The position numbers and the translations under genes were made by a program. A model generated the notes under the pieces. It ran no database searches, was not told the DNA's origin, and saw nothing but the letters and a program-made list of their open reading frames with translations. A stretch of 64,000 nucleotides of DNA, from assembly GCA_016839605.1 (NCBI GenBank), contig JAEOTX010000044.1, positions 31,854 to 95,853 of the forward strand. The letters run 5' to 3'. Position 1 is the first letter of the stretch. The number at the start of each line of letters is the position of its first letter. Source of the stretch: Candidatus Thorarchaeota archaeon. Its GTDB lineage: Archaea > Asgardarchaeota > Thorarchaeia > Thorarchaeales > Thorarchaeaceae. Positions 23,552 through 62,200 of this stretch are shown here, one piece after another.

Positions 23552-24232
23552 TTATTCATGACTAATCAGACGCAAACTCAGGAGGAGTACATCTTCTCCC
23601 TTGGATGCTAGGATATGCCCCATGGGTTTCCTCATGCCTGGTATATTCTTTCTGATATATCTCAGGAATTCATCTGGCGATTCCAGCAATGCGCGTCGCA
23701 TTCCTTCTATATGTTGCATGAGAATCTCCTTTACCGCATTATCAGACATTTCGCCCCGAATCACCTTGTCTCTCAATGTACTTAGGATGTCTTCTGCAAT
23801 GATCCTGGATTCGGTCACAATCCTTCCATGAGGAGTTTTCTTCTTCCTCCTCTGTTTGTGACGGGCTCTCTTTGCCGCCTCAAGGAGTTCTCGAATCTCG
23901 TCCTCGTCCTGGAGCTCCTCCTCCATGTCTGACTCGATCACAAGTTTCCTCCAAGCTTTCTTTCTCTGAAACTCAAGAGGTGATACGAAGCCTTTTGCGT
24001 GCATCTCTTTCAAGTGCTTCTTAAACTCCTCTTCAAGCATGACTGAACTTGGACCAGACATGTGCAGATATTTCTGAAAGAGTACAGCTTCAAACTCGAT
24101 TATTGACCATCCAAAAGCCCTGACTATATTGACCTCTACAGCTCTCTCATAGTCATTGGGTTCAAGTCTTCCATACATCCCTATCCGATGCTCCCTCAAC
24201 TTATATGGTTTCAGATAGTCCGTCTGAAGCAA
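23552..24232 (-). CDS. hypothetical protein with a basic central segment
   Basis: 226-aa ORF with a central RARHKQRRKKK tract and acidic/helical composition. No recognised family. Confidence 0.55.
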   Translation of the reverse strand: MLQTDYLKPYKLREHRIGMYGRLEPNDYERAVEVNIVRAFGWSIIEFEAVLFQKYLHMSGPSSVMLEEEFKKHLKEMHAKGFVSPLEFQRKKAWRKLVIESDMEEELQDEDEIRELLEAAKRARHKQRRKKKTPHGRIVTESRIIAEDILSTLRDKVIRGEMSDNAVKEILMQHIEGMRRALLESPDEFLRYIRKNIPGMRKPMGHILASKGEDVLLLSLRLISHE

Positions 24233-24359: not shown

Positions 24360-26324
24360 TTATCTTCTTCTCATCACTATGACAATGAGCACTATCACCA
24401 CTATTGCTCCAACACCGACTGCTAGAAGCAGCATTGGATCGATCGGCGGTGGCGGTGGTGGTTCAGTTGTCGTAGTAGTTGTAGTAGTTGTGGTCGTTGT
24501 AGTCGTGGTGGTAATGTCTGGAGTGTTTATTGCGGTATCAATGCCCCACTCAATCGTTTGGAGGACCAAGTTATATCCATCCAAATCAGTTCGGCCTGAT
24601 TGAGTGTCTTGGTACATTGGAGCATGTGAGCCGTAAGGTGGTCCACCTGATACTGCAATGACACCAGTTTCTGTAATTCCAGCATTCACCTCAACAGCCA
24701 TTGCTACGAATTGGCCAAATGTCCCATCTGTGTGAGCATATGGCGCAACCAAGTCCTGATCTCCAATTGTCCCGTTGAAGAAGTACAGCACTGGATAGAC
24801 GTCTTCAATTGAACCAGTTTCAAGGTCAACTACATCCGCTCCCTCAGTAGCTGATGTGCTGCCATAGATTAGAGTTGGACTGTGGACGAGCACATTGCTG
24901 ACATCCTGAACTAGGTCTGCCACGAACGCATCGTCACTGGTGATGTTTGCTACGGGACGGTAGTTTGATCCCGCATAGGAATCGTCGTCTGAAATCGTTG
25001 TGGGCTCTGGATAGATGTGTGAGCCAACATCACTCAGAATCGTAGTAACGTTACTTGTCTTCCATGCACCTCCACCGTAGTCCGAGTCAGCTCCTACCCA
25101 TAGGAACTTGTGACCCATTTCATACCAAGCTTCAATAGCATCATACTCAGCCTGAACAAAAGGTGTTACTCCTGATGAAGCCTCATGATTGATTGCACCA
25201 ACCAGAAGCGCATCGGCACCAGCAAGAACTGATGAGTTTATGCCTCCGAATGCGAACACGACCTCATATCCCATGAGAGTCAGATTTCGCTCCATCCATG
25301 TGTCAAAGCTGTCGAAGATGTAGTCCTCATATTGACCATGACTCATGTCAAAGACAACCTTGCCCTTGTAGTCAGTCATCCGAATACCCCACTCAATAGT
25401 TTGGAGGACCAAGTTATATCCATCCAAATCAGTTCGGCCTGATTGAGTGTCTTGGTACATTGGAGCATGTGAGCCGTAAGGTGGTCCACCTGATACTGCA
25501 AGGACTCCGGTTCCTGCACTTCCAGCATTCACCTCAACAGCCATTGCTACGAATTGGCCAAATGTCCCATCTGTGTGGGCATATGGCAAGGTCAAGTCCT
25601 GATCTCCAATAGTCCCATTGAAGAAGTACAGTACTGGGTAGACATTATCAACTGATCCAGTCTCAAGAGCGACCGCATCCTGTCCCTCAGTAGCTGATGT
25701 GCTGCCATAGATCAGAGTTGGACTGTGGACGAGCACATTGCTGACATCCTGAACTAACTCTGCCACGAACGCATCGTCACTGGTGATGTTTGCTACGGGA
25801 CGGTAGTTTGATCCCGCATAGGAATCGTCGTCTGAAATCGTTGTGGGCTCTGGATAGATGTGTGAGCCAACATCACTCAGAATCTGAGTCACATTGCTTG
25901 TCTTCCATGCACCTCCACCGTAGTCCGAGTCAGCTCCTACCCATAGGAACTTGTGACCAGTTGCATACCAATCTGAAATCGCATCATACTCAGCCTGAAC
26001 AAAAGGTGTTACTCCTGATGAAGCCTCATGATTGATTGCACCAACCAGAAGCGCATCGGCATTAGCTAATATTGATGCGTTTATACCTCCCCAGGCAAAA
26101 ACTACATCATAACCCATGAGTGTGAGGTTTCCCTCCATCCATGTGTCAAAACTATCGAATATGTAGTCCTCATACTGACCGTGGCTCATATCAAAGACTA
26201 TAGTGCGCGATGGTAGAGCAGCACTCGCCTCCATAGGGCCAAAGCCAAGGATGACGACGCCAGGAACAACAACAAGTCCAACTATCATCATCAAGAGGAT
26301 ACTACTCGAGTATTTCTTTTTCAT
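24360..26324 (-). CDS. cell-surface protein with duplicated ~281-aa domain, Thr/Pro stalk and C-terminal membrane anchor
   Basis: N-terminal signal-like segment (MKKKYSSSILLMMIVGLVVVPGVVILG), then two near-identical domains. These are followed by 16 Thr, E and 6 Pro, a hydrophobic helix (LLLAVGVGAIVVIVLIVIVM) and a terminal RRR. Confidence 0.8.
   Translation of the reverse strand: MKKKYSSSILLMMIVGLVVVPGVVILGFGPMEASAALPSRTIVFDMSHGQYEDYIFDSFDTWMEGNLTLMGYDVVFAWGGINASILANADALLVGAINHEASSGVTPFVQAEYDAISDWYATGHKFLWVGADSDYGGGAWKTSNVTQILSDVGSHIYPEPTTISDDDSYAGSNYRPVANITSDDAFVAELVQDVSNVLVHSPTLIYGSTSATEGQDAVALETGSVDNVYPVLYFFNGTIGDQDLTLPYAHTDGTFGQFVAMAVEVNAGSAGTGVLAVSGGPPYGSHAPMYQDTQSGRTDLDGYNLVLQTIEWGIRMTDYKGKVVFDMSHGQYEDYIFDSFDTWMERNLTLMGYEVVFAFGGINSSVLAGADALLVGAINHEASSGVTPFVQAEYDAIEAWYEMGHKFLWVGADSDYGGGAWKTSNVTTILSDVGSHIYPEPTTISDDDSYAGSNYRPVANITSDDAFVADLVQDVSNVLVHSPTLIYGSTSATEGADVVDLETGSIEDVYPVLYFFNGTIGDQDLVAPYAHTDGTFGQFVAMAVEVNAGITETGVIAVSGGPPYGSHAPMYQDTQSGRTDLDGYNLVLQTIEWGIDTAINTPDITTTTTTTTTTTTTTTTEPPPPPPIDPMLLLAVGVGAIVVIVLIVIVMRRR
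24465..24512 (-). repeat. poly-Thr coding microsatellite-like tract (16 Thr) followed by Pro6 (24444-24461)
   Basis: Sixteen consecutive ACN codons on the minus strand. This tract produces a spurious poly-Val ORF on the plus strand. Confidence 0.9.
24519..26204 (-). repeat. intragenic tandem duplication, 2 x 843 bp
   Basis: Copy B (24519-25361) and copy A (25362-26204) are offset by exactly 843 bp. For example, CCCCACTCAAT occurs at 24544 and 25387, and identical runs of roughly 100-125 nt are read by eye. Confidence 0.9.
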
Positions 26325-34875: not shown

Positions 34876-35772
34876 ATGTTGCAGAGCGGCCAGTTTGTAG
34901 TAACTGCTGAGATAAGCGCACCTCGAGGGTCGGACTACCTTTCGTTGCTTGAGAAGACGAGTATGCTCAAGGACTTTTGTGATGCAATCAATATACCGGA
35001 CAATCCCCGCAGAATACCAAGAATGAGCAGCATCGCCAGTGCACGTTTTGTTCTCGATGCTGGATCCGAACCGGTCTTACATATTGCAATGAGAGACCGC
35101 AATAGAGTTGCATTGATGAGTGACCTATATGGCGCACATGCTTTAGGAATCCGCAACGTTCTATTCGTTACTGGGGACCTTCCAGGTCTTGGGTCAGACA
35201 CCCAAGCCGAGATAGTTTCTGATATTGATTCAGTTCAGGCCTTGCAATTGGCTACTCGAATGATGGCTGGCAATGATCACGCTGGCGAAGAGCTAGAAGG
35301 AGTGCCCAATCTCTATCTGGGTGCGACCTTTGACCCATTTATTGAACCAATCAACGAACAGATTCGAAGAACAAGGTTGAAACATGAATCGGGTGCCCAG
35401 TTCTTCCAGACCCAAGCTGTTTACGATGTAGACCGCTTCGCAGAGTTTGTAGAATCTATTGAGGACCTGAATACGTATGTTCTGGCTGGTGTGGTCCCTC
35501 TGCAGGGACTCGAAATGGCCGAGTTTATGACTGAACATGTATCAGGCATCAACATACCTGATGCAATACTCCAGCGGCTAGAGAATTCTGCTGAGGGACT
35601 TGATGATGAGGAACAGGCAGCCCAGCAAGAAGGTCTGTTAATCGCGACGGAAACTATCAATTCACTGAGAATGATTGATGGTGTGGATGGTGTTCATATA
35701 ATGGCAGTAGGCTGGGAATCCTGCGTTCCAGAACTTGTCAAGTCTGCAGGTCTCTACCCCCGACCCAGTTGA
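34876..35772 (+). CDS. metF: methylenetetrahydrofolate reductase (MetF family)
   Basis: 298 aa with FVVTAEISAPRG, AINIPDNP, HIAMRDRN and NVLFVTGD, typical of MTHFR TIM-barrel proteins. Confidence 0.85.
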   Translation: MLQSGQFVVTAEISAPRGSDYLSLLEKTSMLKDFCDAINIPDNPRRIPRMSSIASARFVLDAGSEPVLHIAMRDRNRVALMSDLYGAHALGIRNVLFVTGDLPGLGSDTQAEIVSDIDSVQALQLATRMMAGNDHAGEELEGVPNLYLGATFDPFIEPINEQIRRTRLKHESGAQFFQTQAVYDVDRFAEFVESIEDLNTYVLAGVVPLQGLEMAEFMTEHVSGINIPDAILQRLENSAEGLDDEEQAAQQEGLLIATETINSLRMIDGVDGVHIMAVGWESCVPELVKSAGLYPRPS

Positions 35773-35784
35773 GGTAGAACAAAG

Positions 35785-36702
35785 ATGTTTGTCTTCAAGA
35801 AAGAACAGAAGTCGTTTGACATCAGAGGTATCACAATCGGAGGCTATCCCGGAGAGAACCCAACTGTCCTTATAGGGGGCCTCTTCTTCAAGGGACAATC
35901 CATTGTTGAGAATACAAAGGAGGGTCTATTTGACAAGAAAGCAGCAAAAGACTGGCTTGACACAGGGATTAGCATGGCTGAGAGAACCGGCCACCCACTC
36001 ATTGTAGAAGCATATGGCAGATCTGCTGTTGCTATGGAGCGGCATCTATCATGGCTTGTTGATAATTATGATGGGCCTTTCATGTACGAATCATCCAACG
36101 TAAGTGCTAGGAAGAGCGCCACTGAGTTCTGCAACGAGGCTGGTCTCACTGAGAGGGCCATTTACAATTCGGTCAATATATCGATGGATGAAGCTGAACG
36201 GGCATTCTTGAAAGAGAGTTCAATAAGCATGGCCGTATTGTTGGGATGGTCTCCAAAAGCAAGCTCCCTAAAGGACAGGATGGAAGTAATTGAAAACACA
36301 GTTGTCGAGGCGAAGACATTTGGAATAGAGAAATTCCTAGTCGACCCTGGTACTATGCCCGTAGGTGCAGGGTATGGTCTAGAACTAAGAACGACCATGG
36401 CAGTAAAATCAGAGTTGGGTCTGCCTACCTGTCTTGCACCTCATAATGCACCATCCGCATGGAAGTTCATCAGGGAAGAGGATTTAGACCAAGAGGAAAC
36501 AGCCAGCTCAGCAGTTATCGCGTCAATAGTTGCCGCTCAGTTGTTCGCAACCGATTGCATAATGTATGGTTCAATGAGAAGATCGCGAGAAGTCTTCACT
36601 GCAGTAGCTCTTACACAGAACGCAATTGCCGCTTCTGTTGCAGAGGCAAATCAGGTGCTCGGAGTGGAGAAACATCTTTTCGAGCCTATAGCAAGTGAGT
36701 AG
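35785..36702 (+). CDS. mtrH: MtrH-like pterin-binding methyltransferase, paralogue 1
   Basis: 305 aa. The N-terminus MFVFKKEQKSFDIRGITIGGYPGENPTVLIGGLFF matches the MtrH pattern (F-x-KEQ ... GG-x-PGE-x-PTVL). Starts 12 nt after metF. Confidence 0.85.
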   Translation: MFVFKKEQKSFDIRGITIGGYPGENPTVLIGGLFFKGQSIVENTKEGLFDKKAAKDWLDTGISMAERTGHPLIVEAYGRSAVAMERHLSWLVDNYDGPFMYESSNVSARKSATEFCNEAGLTERAIYNSVNISMDEAERAFLKESSISMAVLLGWSPKASSLKDRMEVIENTVVEAKTFGIEKFLVDPGTMPVGAGYGLELRTTMAVKSELGLPTCLAPHNAPSAWKFIREEDLDQEETASSAVIASIVAAQLFATDCIMYGSMRRSREVFTAVALTQNAIAASVAEANQVLGVEKHLFEPIASE

Positions 36703-36713
36703 GAGGTCAGGAG

Positions 36714-37397
36714 ATGTCGGGAAATGCATGGCCTCATGTGCCTGGGGACTTCGAAGTGGGAGACCCAAGTGGATCTGTTGCAATCTGTACCTTAGGTAAG
36801 AAGTTTCCAGTTCCTGGCAGCTATGCTATCATAGGCACATGCAAGACTGAGAATATTGGGATCGAACGGGTCATCATCAACATAATCTCGAATCCTTCTA
36901 TCCGCTTTCTAATTCTATCAGGACCTGAAGTACCAGGCCACCTGACAGGATCTTCAATGAAGTCGCTTTATGAGAACGGAGTTGACCCTGACACACGCAA
37001 GATCATAGATGCCCCTGGAGCTATTCCCTATATCGAAAATGTGCCACTTGAAGGAGTGGAGCGGTTTAGAAATCAGATTGAGTTTGTAGATATGATGAAT
37101 ATTTCCCGTGCAGAAGAGATTGCAGCAATGGCTGCAGAGTTGCATGCTAGAAACCCAGGCTCATTTTCTGGCGATCCTATGTTTGTAGATTTCAGAAGAG
37201 CTTCAAGTTCGACTCAGAGAATGGGAATCGGAGGTTCGATAACACTTCTCCCTGAATTTGGAGTATCACTGAGTCCCTTCTCCTTTTTAGTTGGTCCTCA
37301 GGAAACAAGCGCTGTACTCACTGCACATCCAACATCCATTGGCATAGAAGTGCAATCTAGCGAATCAGGGACGATTCTCATTGGAAAGGAGATATAG
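36714..37397 (+). CDS. mtrA: MtrA-like corrinoid-binding protein, no C-terminal transmembrane helix
   Basis: 227 aa with WPHVPGDFEVGDP, GTCKTENIGIERVIINIISNPSIRFLILSGPEVPGHLTG and GAIPYIENVPLEGVERF, closely following MtrA motifs. The C-terminal 60 aa are not hydrophobic. Confidence 0.85.
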   Translation: MSGNAWPHVPGDFEVGDPSGSVAICTLGKKFPVPGSYAIIGTCKTENIGIERVIINIISNPSIRFLILSGPEVPGHLTGSSMKSLYENGVDPDTRKIIDAPGAIPYIENVPLEGVERFRNQIEFVDMMNISRAEEIAAMAAELHARNPGSFSGDPMFVDFRRASSSTQRMGIGGSITLLPEFGVSLSPFSFLVGPQETSAVLTAHPTSIGIEVQSSESGTILIGKEI

Positions 37398-37400
37398 ACA

Positions 37401-38336
37401 TTGTTTGTGTTTCAAAAAGAGCAATACATCTACGATATTGGTGGTGTAAAGATAGGTGGCAATCCAGGTGAGACTCCCACTGTTCTAGCTGGGACAATAT
37501 TCTACGGAGGACATAAGATAATTCGGGATGCATCCAAGGGAATAGTGGATGAGTCTGCTGCTGAGGAGCTTATCAATAAACAGGAAACAATGTCCGAAAC
37601 AACTGGCAATCCCGCGATGGTTCAGATATTCTCCGAAACTGCAAATGCAATGAAGAGGTACATAGATTTCGTATGCTCACATACAGAATCTCCATTCATC
37701 ATCGATTCTACTGATCCTATGGTGCGGGTAGCAGGCTTGCATCATGCCGAAGAGATTGGACTCATTGACCGAGCAGTATACAACTCAATCAATATATCCG
37801 TAACTGAAGAAGAGCTGGATTCACTACGCGAACTCCAGCATGAGTGTGCCATTGTCCTTGCTTTCAACCCTCAAGATCCATCGACGGCAGGACGTAGAGC
37901 AGTGCTTGACGAGGGCGCAGCATCGCTAAAGCAAGGACTTCTGTCAATCGCAGAGGATGTAGGAGTGACAAAGCCACTAATTGACACAGCCACGACAGCT
38001 ATGGGCGCAGGAGCTGGCGCTGCTGTTTCATTTACTTTTGTATCCAAGACCCTTTATGGACACCCAACAGGGTCCGGAATTCATAACGCTGCATCATCAT
38101 GGACCTGGCTCAAGAAGTATAGAAAGGAGAACCGGGATGCCTACCAGATTTGTGATATCGCCTCGAATCTAGTCGTCCAGTCTTTAGGCGCTGACTTTAT
38201 CCTCTATGGGCCAATTGCTAACGCCAACAGAGTCTTTCCAGCAGTTGCAATGGCTGACATCTTCTCAGCCGAGTCTGCAAAGATGGAAATGGGTTTAGAA
38301 CCTCCTGAAAATCATCCTTTTAGGAAACTCCTCTAA
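37401..38336 (+). CDS. mtrH: MtrH-like pterin-binding methyltransferase, paralogue 2
   Basis: 311 aa. N-terminus MFVFQKEQYIYDIGGVKIGGNPGETPTVLAGTIFY. Clearly diverged from paralogue 1 beyond the N-terminus. Starts 3 nt after the mtrA-like stop. Confidence 0.85.
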   Translation: MFVFQKEQYIYDIGGVKIGGNPGETPTVLAGTIFYGGHKIIRDASKGIVDESAAEELINKQETMSETTGNPAMVQIFSETANAMKRYIDFVCSHTESPFIIDSTDPMVRVAGLHHAEEIGLIDRAVYNSINISVTEEELDSLRELQHECAIVLAFNPQDPSTAGRRAVLDEGAASLKQGLLSIAEDVGVTKPLIDTATTAMGAGAGAAVSFTFVSKTLYGHPTGSGIHNAASSWTWLKKYRKENRDAYQICDIASNLVVQSLGADFILYGPIANANRVFPAVAMADIFSAESAKMEMGLEPPENHPFRKLL

Positions 38337-38350
38337 GCGGAGGAAAAAAG

Positions 38351-39757
38351 ATGTCAAGAAAGCCGATTGTGGTTCGTCCCCGTAGCATTGGGCTTTCTTC
38401 ACTGCGCATGGGGCGGTTCTATACTGTTGCATCGGTTGAACTAGGCAACACGACCACGAAATGCATAATCGTAACAACGAATCTGGAGACCGCAGAGATT
38501 TTCGAGATTGAAAAGGAGATTCGGATGACCAGAGGTGTTCGTCCACCAGTGAAGGGCGAGGAGGTCTTTGGCCGTACCCTCACAGGTGTAGATCTGACCC
38601 GAGAATCAGTTACTGAGTTGGTGTCAGACATTCTCAGAACCGCATTGAATCGTGCACGCCTTGACATTGAGAATGACCTTCATTTCGTTGTACGTTCCAC
38701 GGGGGTGACCGCTGGATTTGCCGATCCGGAGGAGGTTGGAGCGATTGTAAAAGCACTTGCAGAAGGCTGTCTTCATGCAGGTGTAGCACCTAGAAAAATG
38801 GCTGCCGCTATATCGCCAGAGAATCTTCCTCCTAGTCTGAGGGACTTCACCTGGCTTCACAAAGTATATTTCGATGGTGCAGTTGCTAGTTCGCTTCCTC
38901 CATCAAATGCAGAGATAGTTGCTAACGAGATGGAGGGTGAGTTAGTAACAGCTGGATTGAAAGGAGCGGCAAAGAGTACAGATGTCGACTTCAGAAATCC
39001 AGTCATGACACTTGATTTTGGAACTACCCTCGCAGGAAGAATAACAGATAACGGGCATCCGTATGCAAAGACCATCGGCTCATTTGCAGGTCTGGCAGGA
39101 GCGATTCCTGATGCGTTGGTCAGGGGAACGGGAAATGTGGAAGAACAGACTGGTTGTATCCTTGATATCAAAAACTCCGAGCGCCCTCGGAAAAATCAGA
39201 TAGACGATTCTTGGGTAGATGAAATTCTTGCACATATACGAGTTGTACGAGTACCAACCGGAATTAGCAGATTTGGGACAGTTCCTGTCAACGTGAAAGC
39301 TGCAGAGGAATCTGACGTAATTCTGATGGGAGTAGATGCAGGAGAAAATGGATCTGGCCTATTAGACCTGGAACTAATCGGAAGGAAGATTGCTGAAGAA
39401 TCCAGCATTGATACACTGTTGGCTCTCATCGATGTTGTGCAATTTCATGTTGTGCAACGTCTGGTCAACTTAGCGATTTCTGAGGGACTAATTCTTGATG
39501 ACACTTCTTTCGGACTCACAGGAAGAGCAATCACGACTGGAAATAAGCCCAGATTAATCAATTCACAGCTCTCGCTAGAAGATGGCAAAAGGTGGACTGA
39601 GTCGCATCAATTGCTCTTTGTGGAAGATGGTCTAGCAATGGGTGCGGCAGTTGCCGCTCGGTGTATGAATTCAATGGGAACGATTCATAATCCAATGGGC
39701 GGCCGAAAGGGGGACAAGTGTATAATGGGTGCTCGAATGAAGCGTCAGCGGTCATAG
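38351..39757 (+). CDS. ASKHA-fold ATPase-like protein (diol-dehydratase-reactivase / corrinoid activase-like)
   Basis: 468 aa. The phosphate-1-like motif VELGNTTTKCII and a second DFGTTLAG motif resemble the actin/Hsp70-like ATPase fold seen in DdrA/PduG-type reactivases. No Fe-S Cys cluster motif. The assignment is tentative. Confidence 0.5.
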   Translation: MSRKPIVVRPRSIGLSSLRMGRFYTVASVELGNTTTKCIIVTTNLETAEIFEIEKEIRMTRGVRPPVKGEEVFGRTLTGVDLTRESVTELVSDILRTALNRARLDIENDLHFVVRSTGVTAGFADPEEVGAIVKALAEGCLHAGVAPRKMAAAISPENLPPSLRDFTWLHKVYFDGAVASSLPPSNAEIVANEMEGELVTAGLKGAAKSTDVDFRNPVMTLDFGTTLAGRITDNGHPYAKTIGSFAGLAGAIPDALVRGTGNVEEQTGCILDIKNSERPRKNQIDDSWVDEILAHIRVVRVPTGISRFGTVPVNVKAAEESDVILMGVDAGENGSGLLDLELIGRKIAEESSIDTLLALIDVVQFHVVQRLVNLAISEGLILDDTSFGLTGRAITTGNKPRLINSQLSLEDGKRWTESHQLLFVEDGLAMGAAVAARCMNSMGTIHNPMGGRKGDKCIMGARMKRQRS

Positions 39758-39833
39758 GGATTCAATGCTTCAAATCTGCTCATTGAGAGGTTTTATCTTA
39801 GTATGCCGCCTCGCCCGATTTGAGGAATCCTTT

Positions 39834-40646
39834 ATGGAAATCATCCCCATTCAGACACGAGTCATCTCTGAAGATGATGATATACTAGAAGTTCTTGTCA
39901 CTTCATTGCAGGATGTCGGTCTTGATTTGAAAGACAATGATATTCTCGGTATCGCAGAAACTCCATTGGGAACAACAGAAGGCCGCGTAATCAACCTTGC
40001 AGACGTTGAGCTCAGTGAGGAGGCGATTGAGCTTGCAGATGAGTATGACCTCATTCCTGAAGTGGCTGAACTCGTATTAAGGGAAGCAGATGAGATTCTG
40101 GGAGGGATTCCACATATTCTTCTGACCATCAAGAACAACACACTCATGGCCAATGCTGGTGTAGACAAATCCAACGTTCCTCCTGACCATGCATCTCTCT
40201 TACCTGTTGATTCAAGGAGCAGTGCAGAACGAATCAGGCTGGAAGCAAGGAACCGGTATGGAAGAGATATCGGGGTCTTGGTGATTGACAGTAGAACCCA
40301 ACCACTGCGTTTGGGGAATATCGGCATGGCGCTAGGTGTGGCTGGATTCCGACCAGTTGCGGATGACAGAGGAAGACTTGATTTATTCGGCAACGAGATG
40401 CGGATAACTAGGAGGGCAATTGCAGACAATCTTGCGTCGGCGTGTACAGCAGTGATGGGTGAGTCAGATGAATCAATACCTGGAGTATTAATTCGCTCTG
40501 CACCAGTGGAGTTTATTGACGAATCATTTGACTCCTCTGCAATGTGGATTAGTCCGCAGGAATGCATGTATATGGCCATATTCGACCAATGGCGAGTTGG
40601 CAGCTCAGCAGCGAAAAACGATGCGCGGATAGCATTCGAAGAATGA
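39834..40646 (+). CDS. CofE-like gamma-glutamyl ligase family protein
   Basis: About 270 aa from the ATG at 39834. ILGIAETPLGTTEGR, LMANAGVDKSNVP and VIDSRTQPLRLGNIGMALGVAGF resemble F420-0:glutamate ligase motifs. Confidence 0.7.
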   Translation: MEIIPIQTRVISEDDDILEVLVTSLQDVGLDLKDNDILGIAETPLGTTEGRVINLADVELSEEAIELADEYDLIPEVAELVLREADEILGGIPHILLTIKNNTLMANAGVDKSNVPPDHASLLPVDSRSSAERIRLEARNRYGRDIGVLVIDSRTQPLRLGNIGMALGVAGFRPVADDRGRLDLFGNEMRITRRAIADNLASACTAVMGESDESIPGVLIRSAPVEFIDESFDSSAMWISPQECMYMAIFDQWRVGSSAAKNDARIAFEE

Positions 40647-40851: not shown

Positions 40852-42252
40852 TTGCGCCATGAGCTGAATATATCGACCAGACCGGAGAATGATGATTTGA
40901 CGAAGATAGTCCTCATTGATGTCAAGACAGCTGGCACATCAGGGGACATGTTTCTTTCTGCATTGGTGGACTTTCTGGGTGAAGATGACGCTCTTCTTCC
41001 TGTGGCTGCAAGCCTACTAATATTTGACCCATCATTGCGAGTCCGATTTGCAACTAAAAGTGATGATGATATTTCAGGTGTTCAATTGAAGGTTTCAAAG
41101 GACTCAGGTATGCGCTTCAAACCGAACGATTTGATTGAGATGATGGATGCCGTAGCTGAGGAGTTGGAGCTTTCACCTGCCGCAAAGCAGATTTCCCAAA
41201 GGGCATTGAATGAGATTCTGAAAGCTGAATCAAGGGCCCATGAGACCCCGATAGACAAGTTGCACCTTCATGAAACTGGTTCAGTCGATACCATTCTCGA
41301 TTTGGTTGGAACTGCATATCTCATGGAACGCGCAGGACTTCTTATTGATTCAAAGATAATTGCCACTCACGTTGCGGTGGGGAGTGGTACAATTGAGACA
41401 GAGCATGGCCTTCTCGAAGTGCCTGTTCCAGCAGTAGCTGAGATACTTGTTGCTAATGACGTTCCGTTCATAATGGGTGAGGCTAAGACTGAAGTCCTAA
41501 CACCCACTGGCGCGGCTCTTCTCGCAACTTTGGCTTCTGAATTCATCGAGTCCTCAGAAGGATTCGTTGTCAAACAGCAGGGCATCGGATTCGGCTCTCG
41601 TGACTTGGGCGAGGTGGCCAACCGCATGAGGGTCGTTGTGGGCGAGTTCGTTGATGAATCAAAGGTTAAACCAAAGAAGCCTGAAAAGAAGCCTGAGAAG
41701 AAGGAACGACCTAAAAAAGAACCTACAAAGAAGAAAGCTGCACCAAAGAAGAAAAAGGAGGATCGAGCTGAGATGATTGATTCCTGGAGCGCGGATGAAG
41801 TAATCGTCATCGAGACCAATGTTGACGATATCGATGGTGAAGTCATGGGGACAATGTTCGATACTCTCCTGTCTGAGGGCTTGGCATATGATGTGGTGAT
41901 GATTCCAGCCTATGGTAAGAAAAATCGTCCCAGTTATGTGGTCAAGGTAATTGCAGCCAAATCTGGGCTGAAGAGCATAGCGGAGATTTTGATCAAACAT
42001 CTTGGAACTCTAGGAATTCGATACGCGACTTGGGACAGACTCAAAGCTGCTAGAGAGACCATTGTATGCAAAATGGAAATTGAGGGTCTGGAGTTCATGG
42101 TCCGTGTGAAGGTCTCTCGAGGCATTGATGGGAGCATAATCAACATCAAGCCCGAAGCTGATGATGTCATGAAGGTTTCAAGGGAAACCGGAATTCCAGT
42201 ACGTGCGCTTAAACCTAGGATTGCTATGCAAGCTCACGCAATTACCGAATAG
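40852..42252 (+). CDS. larC: LarC family nickel insertion protein (DUF111) with Lys-rich insertion
   Basis: 466 aa with N-terminal IVLIDVKTAGTSGDMFLSALVDF and HLHETGSVDTILDLVG motifs. The central insertion is KVKPKKPEKKPEKKERPKKEPTKKKAAPKKKKE. TTG start. Confidence 0.8.
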   Translation: MRHELNISTRPENDDLTKIVLIDVKTAGTSGDMFLSALVDFLGEDDALLPVAASLLIFDPSLRVRFATKSDDDISGVQLKVSKDSGMRFKPNDLIEMMDAVAEELELSPAAKQISQRALNEILKAESRAHETPIDKLHLHETGSVDTILDLVGTAYLMERAGLLIDSKIIATHVAVGSGTIETEHGLLEVPVPAVAEILVANDVPFIMGEAKTEVLTPTGAALLATLASEFIESSEGFVVKQQGIGFGSRDLGEVANRMRVVVGEFVDESKVKPKKPEKKPEKKERPKKEPTKKKAAPKKKKEDRAEMIDSWSADEVIVIETNVDDIDGEVMGTMFDTLLSEGLAYDVVMIPAYGKKNRPSYVVKVIAAKSGLKSIAEILIKHLGTLGIRYATWDRLKAARETIVCKMEIEGLEFMVRVKVSRGIDGSIINIKPEADDVMKVSRETGIPVRALKPRIAMQAHAITE

Positions 42253-48106: not shown

Positions 48107-48505
48107 ATGGCATTAGGTGATTTTCTCTTTCCACATCTCGACCTGAAATTGGTGATAGCCCACTCCTTCGAGGTTGACATTGAGGCTGAGAAGGATAAGA
48201 AATCAAAGGAATATCAGGACCTCGCGGCAAGGGCGTCCTTTAGTAAGAGTGATTTCCAGAAGCTAGGCATCAAGGAAGGCGGTTCTGTCAACATCAAATC
48301 GAAGTCGGGCCAAGTCGTTGTGGGCGGATTCATTGATGAGCGGCTTGAAGATAGTGTGTCATCAATGCCTCGCGGACCTTGGGCACTATCTCTCGTAGCA
48401 GTTCCAACTGACGGTTCGCCTCCGCAATTGCATGGAATACAGGTCACAGCCACAAAATCGGACGATAAGATTACTTCTCTTGACTCTCTTTTGGAGGGCC
48501 CTTGA
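48107..48505 (+). CDS. FwdD-like molybdopterin-dinucleotide-binding (double-psi beta-barrel) domain protein
   Basis: 132 aa. ...FQKLGIKEGGSVNIKSKSGQVVV... and MPRGPWA resemble FwdD/FmdD and the C-terminal domain of Mo/W-bis-PGD enzymes. Starts 27 nt after the GTPase stop. Confidence 0.7.
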   Translation: MALGDFLFPHLDLKLVIAHSFEVDIEAEKDKKSKEYQDLAARASFSKSDFQKLGIKEGGSVNIKSKSGQVVVGGFIDERLEDSVSSMPRGPWALSLVAVPTDGSPPQLHGIQVTATKSDDKITSLDSLLEGP

Positions 48506-49853
48506 TTTTTGAAACAACTTTGTCCATTTGACCCCGCTCTACCTGCAGTGTCAATCTAGGACTTGATTTGAGCAGATTCAATGTACGCTGAGCGACCTTC
48601 ATCGCTTTATCTCGGACTCCATCCTCCGATTCCCATCCCTGTCCTTCTCGTATATTGACCCGTGCCCTCTCAGCAGCTAAGACAGTGATTTCCCTTTCAA
48701 AGAGTCCGCTTTTTGGAGGGTCATTGCCAATGACCGCTTCAAAGAACAGCCTTCTAGCCTTCTCCCACTCACGAACTTTCTCAAGCTCCTCAACATTGTA
48801 GCCATCACGTTTTGCTTCCAGAACATCATATGGGCAAGAATGCTCGCATGCTCCGCAGTAGAGGCAGTGCTCGGATATGTCGATTTTCTCTTCAGTTCCT
48901 GTCGGATGGATTGCTTTGACTGGACATATGTTGAAGCAGTTGTGACAGCCAACTGGATCACATTTGTCACGCCTTACTATGACTACTTCTCCTGAGAATG
49001 GCTTAGTGACCTTAAGAGCATCATAAGGACAGACCTGAGCGCATAGGCCACACTTCACGCAGGTCTCATCATTGTGGTGCAGCTCGCCTGATATCTTAGG
49101 ATCTTTAATGGTCCTGGGACTGGACTTGGTACATTCGACAGTTATAGCTTCATCTGGACATATCTTTGCACACAATCCACAGTAGTCGCATTCTTCGTCT
49201 ATGGCTCTGATACTTACTGCTGGTCTGAAATCAGGCGGTTCAGCTGATTCCGACCAGAAGATTTTGATTGCTTCAGGACAAAGGAGTTCGCACAACCCAC
49301 AAAGTGAACACTTGTCCTCGTCTATCTTTATTGTGCCTTCAGCTGATTCTTCACCCTCATACTTGACGAGGTCCTTCTTCCATTCGACTTTGACTTCAGC
49401 GTCGAGTGACTCAGTTGGGCAGACCTTTGCACAAAGTAAGCAGGGCGCACACTTCTCCTCATCAATTGTGTGGACTCCGTCGATGTTGACAAAGTCGTTG
49501 ATAGCTCCTTCTCCCTCATATTTGGCATCAAAGGCATTGAAAATGCAGGAAGAGTCGCAGAGTCCACAGAAGGTGCATAGCTCAGGATCGACATTCACGA
49601 GCGGAGCTCCCTCAATCCTTCCTGCTGCTGTTTCCTGAACAGGTCCAAGGGTAATTGCCTCCCAGGGGCAAGGTAGGCATAGACTGCAACCCACGCATTT
49701 GTCAATTGCATGGTCAAGAGTCTTCTTGAGCAACGAGGTTTTCCAGGCAAATTTCACCTTGCCATCTTCAATGTCCATGGACACGACAGGCTTCTCGCCA
49801 ACTGTAATATTATGTCGCTCCATGATGTTAGCCTCCGACTGCCTCTCTTGCAT
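48471..49853 (-). CDS. polyferredoxin (about eight [4Fe-4S] binding motifs)
   Basis: 460 aa with repeated CxxCxxCxxxCP motifs, e.g. CTFCGLCDSSC, CAPCLLCAKVCP, CSLCGLCELLCP, CDYCGLCAKICP, CVKCGLCAQVCP and CLYCGACEHSCP. Confidence 0.85.
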   Translation of the reverse strand: MQERQSEANIMERHNITVGEKPVVSMDIEDGKVKFAWKTSLLKKTLDHAIDKCVGCSLCLPCPWEAITLGPVQETAAGRIEGAPLVNVDPELCTFCGLCDSSCIFNAFDAKYEGEGAINDFVNIDGVHTIDEEKCAPCLLCAKVCPTESLDAEVKVEWKKDLVKYEGEESAEGTIKIDEDKCSLCGLCELLCPEAIKIFWSESAEPPDFRPAVSIRAIDEECDYCGLCAKICPDEAITVECTKSSPRTIKDPKISGELHHNDETCVKCGLCAQVCPYDALKVTKPFSGEVVIVRRDKCDPVGCHNCFNICPVKAIHPTGTEEKIDISEHCLYCGACEHSCPYDVLEAKRDGYNVEELEKVREWEKARRLFFEAVIGNDPPKSGLFEREITVLAAERARVNIREGQGWESEDGVRDKAMKVAQRTLNLLKSSPRLTLQVERGQMDKVVSKIKGPPKESQEK

Positions 49854-52278
49854 CCTGGGGCGGTTTGACAGTAGGCTTTTCTACTATTTCTCTGCCTAAT
49901 GGTCCAAGACGTGTTATTCTATTTACAAATCTCGTTACTTGCTCTGCGAAACTATCAGCTTCAGATGCGGAAGCACTACCAAAGTAAAGGCGTCCCCCAT
50001 CGATTCCTGAAGCCCTGAGCAACTCCCTTACCTTGCCCATCCTGTTCTGAGCATATCCGGCACCTGACCGATAGTGACAATCTTGAATGTGACATCCCAT
50101 GACTGCCACGCCATCAGCGCCCTCTGCAAACGCAGTCATTATAGTTACCACATTCAGACGTCCAGTACATGGAACCTGTATCGGTATCATATTCGGTGGA
50201 TAGGTAATCCTAGCAGTCCCGGCTCTATCTGCAGCCCCATAGGCACACCATCGACAAAGATATCCAACGATAGCTGGCTTCTGAGGATTATATTCCACCG
50301 CGGCCTTTGTTGCACTCAATAGCTGTTCATTCGTTAGGCATGGAAGATCAAGAGCCCCAGATGGGCACGCGGCCGCACATGATCCACATCCCCTGCAAGC
50401 AGCCATGTTAATCAATGGATGCTTTTCGTCATTGAAAGAAATCGCATCGGGAGTACAGTTCTGTTCGCACAAGCGGCAGCTGATGCATAGAGATGGATCA
50501 AGAGATGGAACACATGCCTCTGTAATCACCTTGCCACTAGTGAGCAAGGTCTTGACCTTTGATGCAGCAAGTCCGGCATGGGCTACAGTGTCAGAGATGT
50601 CCTTTGGACCCTGAGCTACTCCTGATAGAAAGACGCCCTTCGTCGGGGTTGTGCTTGGTCCAAGTTTGGGGTGTTGCTCAAGGAAGAAGCCGTTCTCATC
50701 TAATGGTACTTTGAGTAGCCTCGACAGAGCGATATTACTTGGCTCTGCATCCATTCCAACCATTAGGACAACAAGATCCACATCCATCTCGAGTTGCCGT
50801 CTTAGTGTTATGTCCTCTGCACGAATGCTTGTCTGACCAGTGACCGGATCTAGGACAACCTCACCGATCGCTCCTCGGACGAAATTCACCTTGTATTCCT
50901 TTGCCGCCCGGACTTGGAGTTCTTCATGTCCCTTTCCAAAGGTCCTTAAGTCGGAATGAAAGACGAAGGCCTCGATCTCAGGTATCTGCTGTTTGATTTG
51001 AACTACTTCTTTGACAGACGCTGTGCAACAAGCTCTACTGCAATACGGTCGTCCGAAGCGCTCTGAACGACTGCCTACACAAGGCACGAATACGACTCTT
51101 CTAGGCACTTCGCCGCTTGAAGGTCTGACAAGCTTTCCGCCACTCGGCCCTCCTGGGTTCAATAGCCTCTCGAGCTCCAATGATGTTATGACATCAGGAT
51201 TCTCCCCGTATCCAAGTTCCTCGACAATTCGTGGGTCAAATGGCATAAACCCTGTTGCAACAACAATAGCGCCTACGGTGACTGTTTCAGTAGACTCCTC
51301 TTCCTCATATCGAAGAGATTTTGGTTCGCATACCCCTGCACAGGATTGGCATCCAATACAGTTCTGAGTGTCTATGTAAGGTGCGAGAGGCACCAAGTCA
51401 ATCAATGGCCTCACCATAGCTTTTCTCTTTCCGAGCCCGTAATTGTACTCATCAGGGACCTCTACAGGACATACCTCTATACACTTGTTGCAGCCAGTGC
51501 AGGACTCTAGGTCAACAAATCTGGGTCGTTTTCTCAATGTCACATTGTAATGACCAACCGCACCTCTCACGTCAATGATGTCGGTCAAGGTCGATATCTG
51601 GATATTCTCATGCCTTGCGACCCTTGCCATCATAGGACCAAGAATACAGATTCCACAGTCAAATGTTGGGAACAGCTTGTCCCACTTTGCCATGTGACCT
51701 CCGAGGAATCCTTCCCTCTCTACTACAACCGTGCTTATGCCAGAATCAGCAAGCTCGAGCGCAGTGGTTAGTCCCGCAACACCGCCACCAATCACTAGCG
51801 CTTTCTGAGTCACAGGCACATCATGTGTGGTGATTGGATAGGATTTGTCTACTTTGGCTAATCCAGTGTCTATAATAGCTGCAGCTTTGGCAGTTGCTAC
51901 TTCTGGGTCATCATAATGTACCCAACTGCATTGCTCTCTGATGTTTGCCATATGGAGGTGTCCTGGGTTTAGTCCCGCCTCCTTCACAGCGTCAGAGAAC
52001 AGTTCCCTATGAAGGAGAGGCGAACATGCAGCAATAACAGCTTTGCCCACCTTGCTTTTCTTGATAGACTTAATCAGATCTACTACTCCTTGTTCTGAAC
52101 AAAAATGGTCGTTTACCTCAACAAGCGAGATTCCCTTGGCCTCGTATTTTGCCTTCAATGAGTCAACATCGATGGTGTCTGCGATATTTGAGCCGCATCG
52201 ACAAAGGTAGACTGCAGTCTTGTCAGTCTTTTTCTCTTTCTTCTTCTTGCTTTTCTTTTTGCGACTCACAATTTCCAC
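49828..52278 (-). CDS. hdrA: HdrA-like flavoprotein fused to a C-terminal MvhD domain
   Basis: 816 aa with the HdrA N-terminal pattern VYLCRCGSNIADTIDV ... AACSP and FAD motif VIGGGVAGLTTALELA, plus ferredoxin motifs. The C-terminal IVGYLCRWCAYGAADRAG ... PCTGR ... MGCHIQDCHY is MvhD-like. Confidence 0.9.
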   Translation of the reverse strand: MEIVSRKKKSKKKKEKKTDKTAVYLCRCGSNIADTIDVDSLKAKYEAKGISLVEVNDHFCSEQGVVDLIKSIKKSKVGKAVIAACSPLLHRELFSDAVKEAGLNPGHLHMANIREQCSWVHYDDPEVATAKAAAIIDTGLAKVDKSYPITTHDVPVTQKALVIGGGVAGLTTALELADSGISTVVVEREGFLGGHMAKWDKLFPTFDCGICILGPMMARVARHENIQISTLTDIIDVRGAVGHYNVTLRKRPRFVDLESCTGCNKCIEVCPVEVPDEYNYGLGKRKAMVRPLIDLVPLAPYIDTQNCIGCQSCAGVCEPKSLRYEEEESTETVTVGAIVVATGFMPFDPRIVEELGYGENPDVITSLELERLLNPGGPSGGKLVRPSSGEVPRRVVFVPCVGSRSERFGRPYCSRACCTASVKEVVQIKQQIPEIEAFVFHSDLRTFGKGHEELQVRAAKEYKVNFVRGAIGEVVLDPVTGQTSIRAEDITLRRQLEMDVDLVVLMVGMDAEPSNIALSRLLKVPLDENGFFLEQHPKLGPSTTPTKGVFLSGVAQGPKDISDTVAHAGLAASKVKTLLTSGKVITEACVPSLDPSLCISCRLCEQNCTPDAISFNDEKHPLINMAACRGCGSCAAACPSGALDLPCLTNEQLLSATKAAVEYNPQKPAIVGYLCRWCAYGAADRAGTARITYPPNMIPIQVPCTGRLNVVTIMTAFAEGADGVAVMGCHIQDCHYRSGAGYAQNRMGKVRELLRASGIDGGRLYFGSASASEADSFAEQVTRFVNRITRLGPLGREIVEKPTVKPPQDAREAVGG

Positions 52279-52546: not shown

Positions 52547-53005
52547 TTGAAACTCAATCCCATGGAGCTTTACAATCTATTACCCAAGACAAACTGCCGT
52601 CTATGCGAACCAAAGACCTGCATGGCTTTTGCGACTAAGATGGCGCTTGGTGACGTTCTCCCTGATGACTGCCCCCCTCTCCTGGAAGAGGGATTTGAGA
52701 AGAACCTTGAGAAGCTAAGAGAACTTGTCGCTCCGATGCAATCAGCAGAGGAAACTGGAATAAAACTGGATGATTCCAAGTGCACTGGTTGTGGCAACTG
52801 TGTTGTTGTCTGTCCAGTAGATGTAGCCGTCGAGCCTGAAACAGGTCATGGTAAGGCTGGCAAAAGTCGTGACACAGTCTTCATTGTTGAGAACGGGATT
52901 TCAAAGATAATCAATCTGGAGAAGTGCAGGCGATTTCCCCCTGATCGGCTCAATTGCAGAGTCTGTGAACAGTATTGCTGCACAGATGCCATCGAGATTT
53001 GGTAG
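52547..53005 (+). CDS. Fe-S protein: CdhE/AcsC-type N-terminal [4Fe-4S] domain fused to a 2x[4Fe-4S] ferredoxin-like domain
   Basis: 152 aa. LLPKTNCRLCEPKTCMAFATKMA...C has the same Cys spacing as the CdhE N-terminus in this window (LLPGTNCEECGEANCMAFATKLA...C). It is followed by CTGCGNCVVVCP and a second Cys group. The start is TTG 52547 or ATG 52562. Confidence 0.75.
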   Translation: MKLNPMELYNLLPKTNCRLCEPKTCMAFATKMALGDVLPDDCPPLLEEGFEKNLEKLRELVAPMQSAEETGIKLDDSKCTGCGNCVVVCPVDVAVEPETGHGKAGKSRDTVFIVENGISKIINLEKCRRFPPDRLNCRVCEQYCCTDAIEIW

Positions 53006-53013
53006 GTGATACT

Positions 53014-54249
53014 ATGGAAGATATCGTCTGCAGTGGATGCGCGTTACTTTGTGATGATGTGGCCGCAGAGGTGAAAGGTGAGGAAATTAGCTCATTGGGC
53101 CTCTGTAGACTCGGTCATCAACACTTGATCTCCTCAATAAAGATGCACGACGCGAAATCTGTGGTCCGCGATACCGGTACAGAAAAGACGGTCTCTATAG
53201 GTGTGGCACTGAAGAAAGCATCAGAGATTCTGCTCACTGCAAAGCGTCCTCTTCTTTATGGGTGGTCTCACTCAACAGATGAAACCATCACGAAAGGAAT
53301 TGAGCTGGCAAAGTCCATAGGAGCCGCTTTCGATACTACCGCTAGTCTTGGATTGGTTCAGGCACTCATCCATAAGCTTCACTCCAAGCAGCTGGAAATC
53401 GATCTTGATTATGTCCGAAATAATGGTGAGTTCATTCTGTATTGGGGATCTAATCCAACAGAGAGCAGTCATCGACATCCCAGTAAGTTTGCAGTCTTGC
53501 CGCGTGGCGAAAACATACCTGAGGGAATCGAGAGTAGGACTATCGGAGTCGTGGATGTTCGAAATACGGAGACAATGAAGATGGCCAATCATCGACTGAT
53601 TATCCCTCCCGGGGCAGACGCAGAGTTACTTGATGCATTGTCATCTGATATTTTAGGAAAGAGTCCTATCACTGGAGATGTAGCTGGTATTTCTGCTCAG
53701 GAGCTGCTTGGGCTTGTTCGCAATGTAAAGAAATCCGACTGCACAGTGATATTCTATGGCAGCGGATTGATTAACTCAGGAAATACAGAGGCGAATCTTT
53801 CTGGGCTCCAAACACTAATCGAGTCTGTGAGGGAGGCTGGGAAGCAGGCATTCGCTTTGCCCATGGCAACAGAACCCAACATCATGGGTGTCACTAAGAA
53901 CGCAGTTGAAGCAGGAGATGGGGATACACTTCGTAGGCTTGTGGCTGGAGAGTTCGAAGCTGCACTCATAGTTGGCGACGATTCACTTGTAGAGCTGCCT
54001 GGACCTGCAGCTAAGGCATTCGCTAGCATTCCACTGATTTACGTTGGTCCACCTGGCGGCATCACCGATGCCAAAGCAAGAGTTTCTATTCACGTTGCAG
54101 ACAGTATGCTATTGGGATCTGGCAAAATGCATCGGCTCGATTTTGTTGAGGTTCCGTACAAGCAGTGGAGCGCTCATCCAAAGCAACCTGCAGCTGAATT
54201 TGACGTGATATCAAGACTACATGAACTTGTGACTAAGGGGTTGAAATAG
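53014..54249 (+). CDS. FwdB/FmdB-like molybdopterin oxidoreductase family protein without an evident Mo/W-ligand cysteine
   Basis: About 411 aa. The N-terminus IVCSGCALLCDDV...C matches FwdB. Only one further Cys is present (KKSDCTVIFYGSG). ATG at 53014 is preferred over 52975. Confidence 0.8.
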   Translation: MEDIVCSGCALLCDDVAAEVKGEEISSLGLCRLGHQHLISSIKMHDAKSVVRDTGTEKTVSIGVALKKASEILLTAKRPLLYGWSHSTDETITKGIELAKSIGAAFDTTASLGLVQALIHKLHSKQLEIDLDYVRNNGEFILYWGSNPTESSHRHPSKFAVLPRGENIPEGIESRTIGVVDVRNTETMKMANHRLIIPPGADAELLDALSSDILGKSPITGDVAGISAQELLGLVRNVKKSDCTVIFYGSGLINSGNTEANLSGLQTLIESVREAGKQAFALPMATEPNIMGVTKNAVEAGDGDTLRRLVAGEFEAALIVGDDSLVELPGPAAKAFASIPLIYVGPPGGITDAKARVSIHVADSMLLGSGKMHRLDFVEVPYKQWSAHPKQPAAEFDVISRLHELVTKGLK

Positions 54250-58126: not shown

Positions 58127-58127
58127 C

Positions 58128-62137: not shown

Positions 62138-62159
62138 GAGGCCATACCTAAACGGTCTT

Positions 62160-62176: not shown

Positions 62177-62200
62177 TCTTTCCTATTGAGAGTAAGAAGA

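Follow-up and report, generated by a model that had tools for sequence, protein, structure and literature searches.

A gene module of MtrA, two different MtrH proteins and methanogenesis marker 14 in Thorarchaeia, tentatively read as a soluble corrinoid methyl shuttle

The window analysed here is the whole stretch of 64,000 nucleotides from a Candidatus Thorarchaeota archaeon (assembly GCA_016839605.1, contig JAEOTX010000044.1, positions 31,854 to 95,853 of the forward strand), and the system in question is a tightly packed set of genes for homologues of MtrA and MtrH, two subunits of the methanogen membrane methyltransferase complex Mtr, accompanied by methanogenesis marker 14 and a MetF-like protein. 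An open reading frame (ORF) scan placed six genes on the plus strand with gaps of 12, 11, 3, 14 and then 7 nt. The first gene of the tight unit is MetF-like (34876..35772, +; Pfam MTHFR, 6.9e-30, 104.8 bits) and is followed by MtrH1 (35785..36702, +; Pfam MtrH, 8e-71), a divergent Thorarchaeia-specific paralogue with a pterin-binding TIM barrel, and by MtrA (36714..37397, +; Pfam MtrA, 8.8e-56), a predicted corrinoid-binding protein that has no membrane anchor. Then come the canonical MtrH, here MtrH2 (37401..38336, +; Pfam MtrH, 2.1e-118), marker 14 (DUF2114, m26, arCOG04866; 38351..39757, +; Pfam, 2.2e-187), which is a putative ATPase of the ASKHA fold, and a CofE-like F420-0:gamma-glutamyl ligase (39834..40646, +; longest ORF from 39765; Pfam F420_ligase, 1.3e-65). 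The last gap of 7 nt belongs to the CofE-like ORF that begins at 39765; the ATG at 39834 leaves 76 nt after marker 14 and is the more likely start, because the Pfam match begins there and the homologues are called at 260 aa. The nearest homologues of MtrH1, MtrA and marker 14 all come from metagenome-assembled genomes (MAGs) of Candidatus Thorarchaeota. An earlier note on this DNA, made from its letters alone, had described the same set of six same-strand genes; the ORFs match its coordinates and gaps exactly, and Pfam and NCBIfam agree with its domain calls of MetF, MtrH, MtrA, MtrH and CofE-like.

To describe the conservation of the set, a marker 14 profile was scanned against one genome per species, which gave 51 loci of the Thorarchaeota lineage and 29 methanogen loci. 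The order ArcTGT(-), HflX, MetF, MtrH1, MtrA, MtrH2, marker 14, CofE, LarC, PolB(-) recurs in essentially every sufficiently long thorarchaeal contig: MtrH1-MtrA-MtrH2-marker 14 is seen in 42 of the 51, the remaining nine being cut by contig ends, MetF lies directly upstream of MtrH1 in 40, and the synteny runs on through LarC in 34. The MtrA/MtrH module put forward in the earlier note, which is operon-like, has no membrane part and includes an ASKHA protein as partner, is thus conserved in 42 of 51 thorarchaeal contigs. The LarC-like gene (40852..42252, +; Pfam Ni_insertion, 5.1e-95) encodes a nickel-insertion protein and is a conserved neighbour in a separate transcription unit.

Gene order alone is weak evidence of a functional link, since the housekeeping genes are equally collinear, and intergenic gaps anchored by homology, together with one rearrangement, are stronger evidence. 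The median gap is 7 nt for MetF-MtrH1 (42 thorarchaeal species), 18 nt for MtrH1-MtrA, 4 nt for MtrA-MtrH2 and 13 nt for MtrH2-marker 14, and in these four core pairs 95–98% of the gaps are of 30 nt or less. Between marker 14 and CofE the median is 44 nt, with gaps reaching 2.4 kb and only 34% of them at 30 nt or less; for CofE-LarC it is 130 nt and never 30 nt or less, and for HflX-MetF it is 792 nt. In one thorarchaeal locus (L050, 2697-14900) MtrH1-MtrA-MtrH2-marker 14 is inverted as a block relative to CofE/LarC/PolB and to HflX/ArcTGT, with MetF missing and CofE detached from the core on the opposite strand, and in another (L025, 11380-13906) an insertion of about 2.4 kb separates marker 14 from CofE. 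According to the tight gaps and the block move the functional unit is the four-gene core, which is nearly always led by MetF, and the earlier claim that MetF is coupled to the module is borne out by the 7-nt median. The claim that the CofE-like gene completes the set did not survive: CofE and LarC were considered as integral parts of the module and rejected on the gap statistics and the two rearrangements, and the nearness of CofE may be plain genome collinearity, because housekeeping genes also stay nearby. The median identity across the class is 51–68% for all five proteins (MetF, MtrH1, MtrA, MtrH2 and marker 14).

Queries for MtrE, MtrD, MtrC, MtrB, MtrF and MtrG from two methanogen operons (Methanothermobacter and Methanomicrobiales) found no match in the 64 kb of the window or in the 51 thorarchaeal loci, the search having spanned these sequences rather than whole genomes, and MtrA and MtrH matched all loci. 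For the window this agrees with the earlier note, which had reported no MtrB-G there. Adam 2022 likewise reports no other Mtr subunits in Thorarchaeia and describes these archaea as carrying canonical MtrAH only, called methanogenesis remnants (PMC9635834). Because no MtrB-G were found and MtrA has no transmembrane helix, the thorarchaeal system would have neither sodium pumping nor an MtrE-type coenzyme M site. A reading in which an ordinary Mtr has its membrane subunits encoded elsewhere, or in which the genes are a remnant without function that only collinearity keeps together, could draw on the search scope just given and on the collinearity of a region that includes ArcTGT, HflX and PolB across Thorarchaeia. 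It is highly improbable, given that the transmembrane helix of MtrA is gone in all thorarchaeal copies and a conserved new domain has been gained, that neither our queries of the 64 kb and the 51 loci nor Adam 2022 point to MtrB-G, that the five proteins are strongly constrained with invariant active-site residues, and that in L050 the core shifted as one unit.

The MtrA protein of the window is matched to solved MtrA structures at 1.3e-49 (172 bits to 8q3v_A). Its H76, which is conserved, aligns with His84, the cobalt-ligand histidine, and the segments K44-T45-E46-N47 and G102-A-I-P-Y-I-E-N109 are invariant among 55 thorarchaeal MtrA sequences. In the AlphaFold2 (AF2) model residues 1–160 form the B12 domain, which fits 5l8x/5laa at a root-mean-square deviation (RMSD) of 1.1 Å; they are followed by a flexible linker at 162–170, where the predicted local distance difference test (pLDDT) is 44, and by an all-beta mini-domain at 171–226 (pLDDT 59–75), the beta segment bearing a conserved HPS...IEV...GTIL.GKE signature. 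The maximal 19-residue hydropathy is 1.36 in the window protein and at most 1.78 in all thorarchaeal MtrA, against 2.06–2.76 in methanogen MtrA, and by this measure a transmembrane helix is found in no thorarchaeal MtrA and in every methanogen copy of the loci set. These values uphold the earlier call of an MtrA without a transmembrane segment, and the keeping of every cobalamin-binding motif fits its expectation that the protein should bind a corrinoid. As judged from its sequence and model, the thorarchaeal protein is a bona fide B12-binding MtrA in which a flexible linker and a small beta domain appear to stand in for the membrane helix. For the C-terminal tail a domain assignment was also sought, with no Pfam match and a Foldseek result dominated by the B12 domain. 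At residues ~143-160 the recognition motif of Connectase in methanogen MtrA, KDPGA with the cut falling between D and P, appears as RNPGS in the window protein and as xNPGx in the thorarchaeal consensus, and the PG.F..DP pattern that follows this position is retained.

The two MtrH proteins are truly different, as the earlier note had held, and are 34% identical to each other. MtrH2 scores 410.5 bits with TIGR01114 (cutoff 271.4), 296 bits with Methanosarcina mazei MtrH 9qtp_o and 196 bits with MtgA; it conserves the R/K-K-K tail patch and every pterin residue, among them the four positions that define the pterin-ring pocket in PF02007 (Asp102/103, Asn129, Asp194/196 and Asn227/230), and it groups with methanogen MtrH in a distance tree. 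Its sequence thus marks it as a canonical subunit for methyl transfer between methyl-tetrahydromethanopterin (methyl-H4MPT) and a corrinoid.

MtrH1 scores 239.6 bits with TIGR01114, which is under the cutoff. Among 1.84 billion representative proteins it has one full-length relative at 62% identity and the next at 36%, and its closest relatives outside Thorarchaeota are a mixture of methanogen, Bathyarchaeota and bacterial MtrH-family proteins. The tree, built by neighbour joining on Kimura distances, is crude, and the long branch of MtrH1 can be trusted in it only as lying neither with MtrH2 nor with MtgA; the MtrH1 clade is confined to Thorarchaeota, is monophyletic in 100 of 100 bootstraps and is the exclusive sister of MtrH2 in none of 100. 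The possibility that MtrH1 is a recent duplicate of MtrH2 was therefore rejected on the bootstraps and the 34% identity. With distances of 0.51 within the MtrH1 clade and 0.49 within that of MtrH2 the former evolves as slowly as the latter and so is not decaying. N128, D187, H220 and N221 are invariant in MtrH1; in its pocket both Asn and the equivalent of Asp194/196 are kept throughout and the first Asp is changed to Glu, and G32, F35 and Q38 stand where the family has T/S, Y and H. On the question whether both MtrH proteins group with the canonical ones, MtrH2 does and MtrH1 forms its own clade, a separate and equally constrained paralogue of Thorarchaeota with a predicted pterin-ring pocket, an Asp-to-Glu change and a tail site that appears to be different.

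The earlier note had offered, as an example, a shuttle between folate-type and methanopterin-type pterins, and no folate signature was found to support it. Pairwise alignments with the folate enzyme MtgA share 'VDPG' and 'AP.NA' motifs, and a role of MtrH1 as an MtgA-like enzyme was considered on that account and rejected on the residue table and the distances. The tetrahydrofolate (H4F) tail in MtgA is bound by Y35, H38, Y230, F243, F251, W272 and R236; at these positions MtrH1 has F, Q, S, H/Y/A, T/I and E, and only R/K at 236 is retained. Its score with the MtgA equivalog NF047990 is 186.9 (cutoff 550), and it is farther from MtgA (1.61) than MtrH2 is (1.29).

Marker 14 scores 604.8 bits with TIGR03285 (cutoff 274), is covered by the Pfam model from position 2 to 449 of 449, and is 50–55% identical to its methanogen orthologues. 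An alignment of thorarchaeal and methanogen sequences has 114 positions conserved at 95% or more, among them the ASKHA phosphate-1, phosphate-2 and adenosine motifs, which are conserved from Thorarchaeota to methanogens, as are the invariant Cys140, Cys438 and Cys457; Cys38 is mostly conserved, and the cysteines form no known cluster motif. The AF2 model (pLDDT 85.4, predicted TM-score 0.89) finds only ASKHA proteins in Foldseek, namely levoglucosan kinase, Qri7, RACo, glucokinase, DnaK and an HgdC-type activator, the RACo structures 4c1n and 3zyy taking ranks 8, 15 and 16. The predicted fold is consistent with the earlier call of an ASKHA ATPase, the activity remaining putative, and to this call the identity of methanogenesis marker 14 is now added. 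A more specific structural relative was searched for, and the PDB sequence search gave nothing below E = 0.1, Foldseek returning generic ASKHA proteins only.

In methanogen loci of Methanomicrobiales and Methanobacteriota marker 14 lies 1–5 kb downstream of mtrA..H, and in the locus L085 of an uncultured lineage (10001-14139; JGI 3300022546) a one-base overlap at the mtrH stop codon joins mtrH to marker 14. According to the literature marker 14 adjoins mtr operons and is absent where Mtr is absent (PMC4153887, PMC9635834): Borrel 2014 noted that arCOG04866 is missing from the Mtr-less Methanomassiliicoccales and stands near mtr operons elsewhere, and Adam 2022 links m26, which is DUF2114, with Mtr through its distribution, its phylogeny and its synteny, 'even including the Thorarchaeia clade' (PMC9635834). 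The ASKHA-fold marker 14 follows MtrA and MtrH from methanogens into Thorarchaeia, and its association with them has outlasted the loss of all membrane subunits. Because Thorarchaeia retain only the soluble parts of Mtr and yet keep marker 14 at 50–55% identity to the methanogen protein, its job must lie with MtrA and MtrH rather than with the part of Mtr that deals with the membrane, sodium or coenzyme M. The reductive activase of Mtr is still unidentified, and a structural paper of 2025 refers to 'as-yet uncharacterised' ATP-dependent activators (PMC12774963). Marker 14 is the best candidate for the ATP-dependent reactivation, or for the cofactor loading, of the MtrA cobalt. The stronger proposal, that it is the long-sought reactivating or maturation enzyme of MtrA-type corrinoid proteins and hence of the Mtr of all CO2-reducing methanogens, we regard as unlikely.

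Several further neighbours of marker 14 may be recorded here. The locus L085 also holds the nearest relative of the thorarchaeal MtrH2, and its mtrH-marker 14 pair faces a convergent mtrB-mtrA-(F/G-like) set; mtrC, mtrD and mtrE are missing within 10 kb. The locus may represent a further intermediate in the loss of Mtr. In 14 Methanosarcinales loci (L059, L061, L062, L068, L070-L075, L077, L079, L080, L083) a same-strand thioredoxin gene (130–140 aa, WCAPC motif, TIGR01068 108 bits) stands directly upstream of marker 14 at a distance of about 30–430 nt; taken with the three invariant cysteines, this is a hint of thiol redox control. In Methanomicrobiales and Methanobacteriota the gene directly downstream of marker 14 encodes a nucleotidyltransferase of the TIGR00454 family (L063, 11441-12022; L076, 9302-10051; L078, L069 and L067) related to CobY of the cobamide pathway but scoring 137–142 bits with NF045495 (cutoff 250), a weak link between marker 14 and corrinoid metabolism.

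The MetF-like protein matches the Pfam MTHFR fold, with all NCBIfam MetF equivalogs under their cutoffs, and the Asgard/ANME-1 clade of MetF has been argued in the literature to act on H4MPT. A search for MetV (PF12225) found none in the 64-kb window, and in at least 13 other thorarchaeal loci MetV is the gene immediately upstream of MetF. The CofE-like protein scores 178.3 with TIGR01916 (cutoff 180.65) and 190.6 with NF009809 (cutoff 274), its Pfam match being full length; thorarchaeal MAGs have been reported with only some of the F420 biosynthesis genes. In the LarC-like protein a Lys/Pro/Glu-rich low-complexity insert, KPKKPEKKPEKKERPKKEPTKKKAAPKKKKED, lies at residues ~268-305 between two conserved halves.

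The explanation that we favour, to which we give a little less than an even chance, is that the operon metF-mtrH1-mtrA-mtrH2-marker14, known from its genes and predicted structures, encodes a soluble, membrane-free descendant of Mtr that would work as a two-station corrinoid methyl shuttle with a dedicated putative ATPase. MetF, joined by MetV in many relatives, would interconvert methylene- and methyl-tetrahydropterin, and MtrH2 would transfer the methyl group between methyl-H4MPT and the Co(I) of MtrA. MtrH1 would be the second station, which hands the methyl group to, or takes it from, another pterin-type carrier whose tail is unlike that of H4MPT; we infer such a pairing of a donor:corrinoid and a corrinoid:acceptor MtrH. 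MtrH and MtgA dimerise through their C-terminal helices with the active sites facing opposite ways (PMC12774963, PMC7154762), and in Mtr a beta strand contributed by MtrB holds the MtrH dimer, a linker allowing MtrA to swing; by analogy with that homodimer MtrH1 and MtrH2 may form a heterodimer, to which the beta domain of MtrA would anchor, leaving the B12 domain to swing on its linker between the two barrels. Marker 14 with ATP would keep the MtrA cobalt active, by reductive reactivation or by cofactor loading, and neither sodium pumping nor coenzyme M would be involved. Because Thorarchaeota are reported to hold both the H4MPT-type and the H4F-type C1 branches (PMC6737245), H4F is a possible second carrier, to which the MtrH1 sequence gives no pointer. 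Of the overall reading given in the earlier note the module, the ASKHA protein and the MetF linkage stand, the two-carrier shuttle is plausible though with no folate signature to back it, and the CofE-like gene falls as an integral part.

Several observations weigh against this shuttle. The whole 13-kb region is collinear among Thorarchaeia, unrelated ArcTGT, HflX and PolB included. The predicted beta domain of MtrA is only moderately confident. The structural matches of marker 14 are generic ASKHA proteins with TM-scores of 0.3–0.45, so that it can be placed in the ASKHA superfamily but in no known subfamily; in contrast to RACo and RamA it also shows no Fe-S domain that could be recognised (DUF2114 being the sole Pfam match at E up to 10), and the missing ferredoxin-type domain lowers the case that marker 14 is RACo or RamA, not the case that it works like one. 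The tree position of MtrH1 is unstable, as expected of a long branch. In addition Glu102 replaces the catalytic Asp in 43 of 43 MtrH1 sequences, Glu being found there in one of 93 family representatives, and the D102A change in MtgA abolishes activity; MtrH1 has neither the K-K basic patch proposed to bind the H4MPT tail nor the tail aromatics of MtgA. With the Glu swap and neither tail site MtrH1 could be non-catalytic or could bind something unexpected.

An alternative is a one-station module, in which MtrH2 loads MtrA from methyl-H4MPT, MtrH1 is non-catalytic or regulatory, replaces the second MtrH and anchors MtrA, and the methyl group of MtrA goes on to a methyltransferase whose gene lies elsewhere, the most plausible being a MesA-type core methionine synthase, which is folate-independent. 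Besides the substituted Asp and the lost tail patch, it is in keeping with the view that only the membrane-proximal MtrH of each dimer serves MtrA in Mtr (PMC12774963), with the description of the methionine methyl donor of methanogens as an unidentified corrinoid protein (PMC9012536) and with the prediction of MtrA as the MesA donor in Price 2021. We consider it somewhat unlikely, given that MtrH1 keeps four invariant pterin-pocket residues and is as constrained as MtrH2, that the corrinoid iron-sulfur protein (CoFeSP) of the thorarchaeal carbon monoxide dehydrogenase/acetyl-CoA synthase (CODH/ACS) could instead serve a MesB-type synthase, and that no gene for methionine synthase or another second methyltransferase (MT2) is present in the window or within 10 kb in two thorarchaeal loci (L001 and L003).

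The genes for CODH/ACS lie at 54253-63004 and begin 14.6 kb downstream of the Mtr-like genes, in line with the earlier placement of CODH/ACS downstream of them. This distance has a bearing on a further possibility, a methylotrophic entry resembling MtoABCD or MtgABC, in which a first methyltransferase (MT1) encoded elsewhere methylates MtrA from methylated amines, methanol or methoxylated aromatics and the MtrH proteins pass the methyl group to H4MPT and so to the Wood-Ljungdahl pathway. MtrH-family proteins are indeed the corrinoid:pterin methyltransferases of MtgABC and of the Mto O-demethylase, MtrH stands near MttB-type genes in other Asgard lineages (PMC11291895), and a funnelling of methyl groups into the Wood-Ljungdahl pathway by MtrAH of non-methanogens is hypothesised in Adam 2022 (PMC9635834). 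The possibility is quite improbable here: a nearby MT1 gene of the MtaB, MttB or MtoB type was sought, as was a methionine synthase gene, and neither is present in the cluster, the window or the flanks of L001 and L003, known MT1 proteins use corrinoid proteins of the MtaC/MttC type in place of MtrA, a setting that is reductive or pterin-to-pterin is suggested by how tightly MetF is coupled, and two different MtrH paralogues would be left unexplained.

Read as a two-station shuttle, the thorarchaeal system shares with the Mtr complex the B12 domain of MtrA, with its 1.1 Å fit and all cobalamin motifs, an MtrH2 of equivalog level, the co-occurrence with marker 14 and, as far as the model can be followed, a domain tethered by a flexible linker and able to swing between stations; unlike Mtr it has two different MtrH proteins and not a homodimer. 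With MtgABC of Desulfitobacterium, MtoABCD of Methermicoccus/Archaeoglobus and MeTr-CoFeSP-RACo it would share a soluble corrinoid carrier between two stations, an MtrH-family TIM barrel for the pterin and an ASKHA-type ATPase partner. It differs from these systems in that the carrier is of the MtrA type, with its unique B12 binding mode, and not of the MtaC/MtgC type, in that both stations would be MtrH-family pterin barrels instead of MT1 plus MT2, and in that the putative ATPase is a DUF2114 protein without a ferredoxin domain and not RamA or RACo. In Atabeyarchaeia and Freyarchaeia MtrA-like, MtrH-like and fused MtrAH proteins are likewise Asgard homologues in non-methanogens without the membrane complex; those forms are phylogenetically distinct, fused or divergent and lie near MttB-type genes (PMC11291895), whereas the thorarchaeal set is unfused, combines a canonical MtrA/MtrH2 pair with MtrH1 and is always found with marker 14.

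The core finding, MtrAH with DUF2114 in Thorarchaeia, is already published in Adam 2022, and the thorarchaeal MtrAH with m26 of that paper is the same locus type as the one described here (PMC9635834). The second MtrH with its Asp-to-Glu change, the linker and beta domain of MtrA, the tight coupling to MetF(V) and the behaviour of the four genes as a block are not described in the accessible text of that paper, and what is new here is the MtrH1 clade with its invariant Glu, the predicted linker and beta domain of MtrA and the three invariant cysteines of marker 14. The role of MtrA and MtrH outside methanogens has been called unclear in the literature (PMC11291895, PMC9635834), and the thorarchaeal system eases the testing of this role in many non-methanogenic archaea and bacteria, as well as that of marker 14 function and of the reactivation of Mtr cobalt after oxidation, since expression and assays are much simpler with four or five soluble proteins than with a membrane complex of eight subunits. 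The finding also bears on the Wood-Ljungdahl pathway's wiring among Asgard archaea.

Some other features of the window deserve mention. The CODH/ACS cluster (+) is complete and archaeal-type, with cdhA, cdhB (epsilon), cdhC, cdhD and a cdhE-like gene and with a CooC/CbiA-type ATPase on each side. Between it and the Mtr-like operon, at 48471-52278 (-), there are genes for a fusion of an HdrA-like flavoprotein with an MvhD/FlpD domain (816 aa) and then for a polyferredoxin of 460 aa, which could be an electron partner of MetF; MetFV-HdrABC-MvhD complexes are known in acetogens. The ORFs at 24360-26324 (-), 52975-54249 (+), 53-931 (+), 15331-15999 (+) and 23552-24232 (-), which span 222–654 aa, match nothing in Pfam at E up to 1e-5, and the one of 424 aa stands directly upstream of the CooC/cdh cluster. 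At 16447-18105 (+) there is a radical SAM protein of 552 aa with an N-terminal Zn_ribbon_HMPTM domain (PF23545), which by its sequence looks like a radical SAM methylase of the methanopterin pathway and would fit the use of H4MPT by the organism. Finally, genes for small GTPases of the Arf/Ras family, a type of Asgard 'eukaryotic signature' protein, are found at 5645-6544 (+) of the window and, adjoining the syntenic block in relatives, at 19130-19696 of L001.

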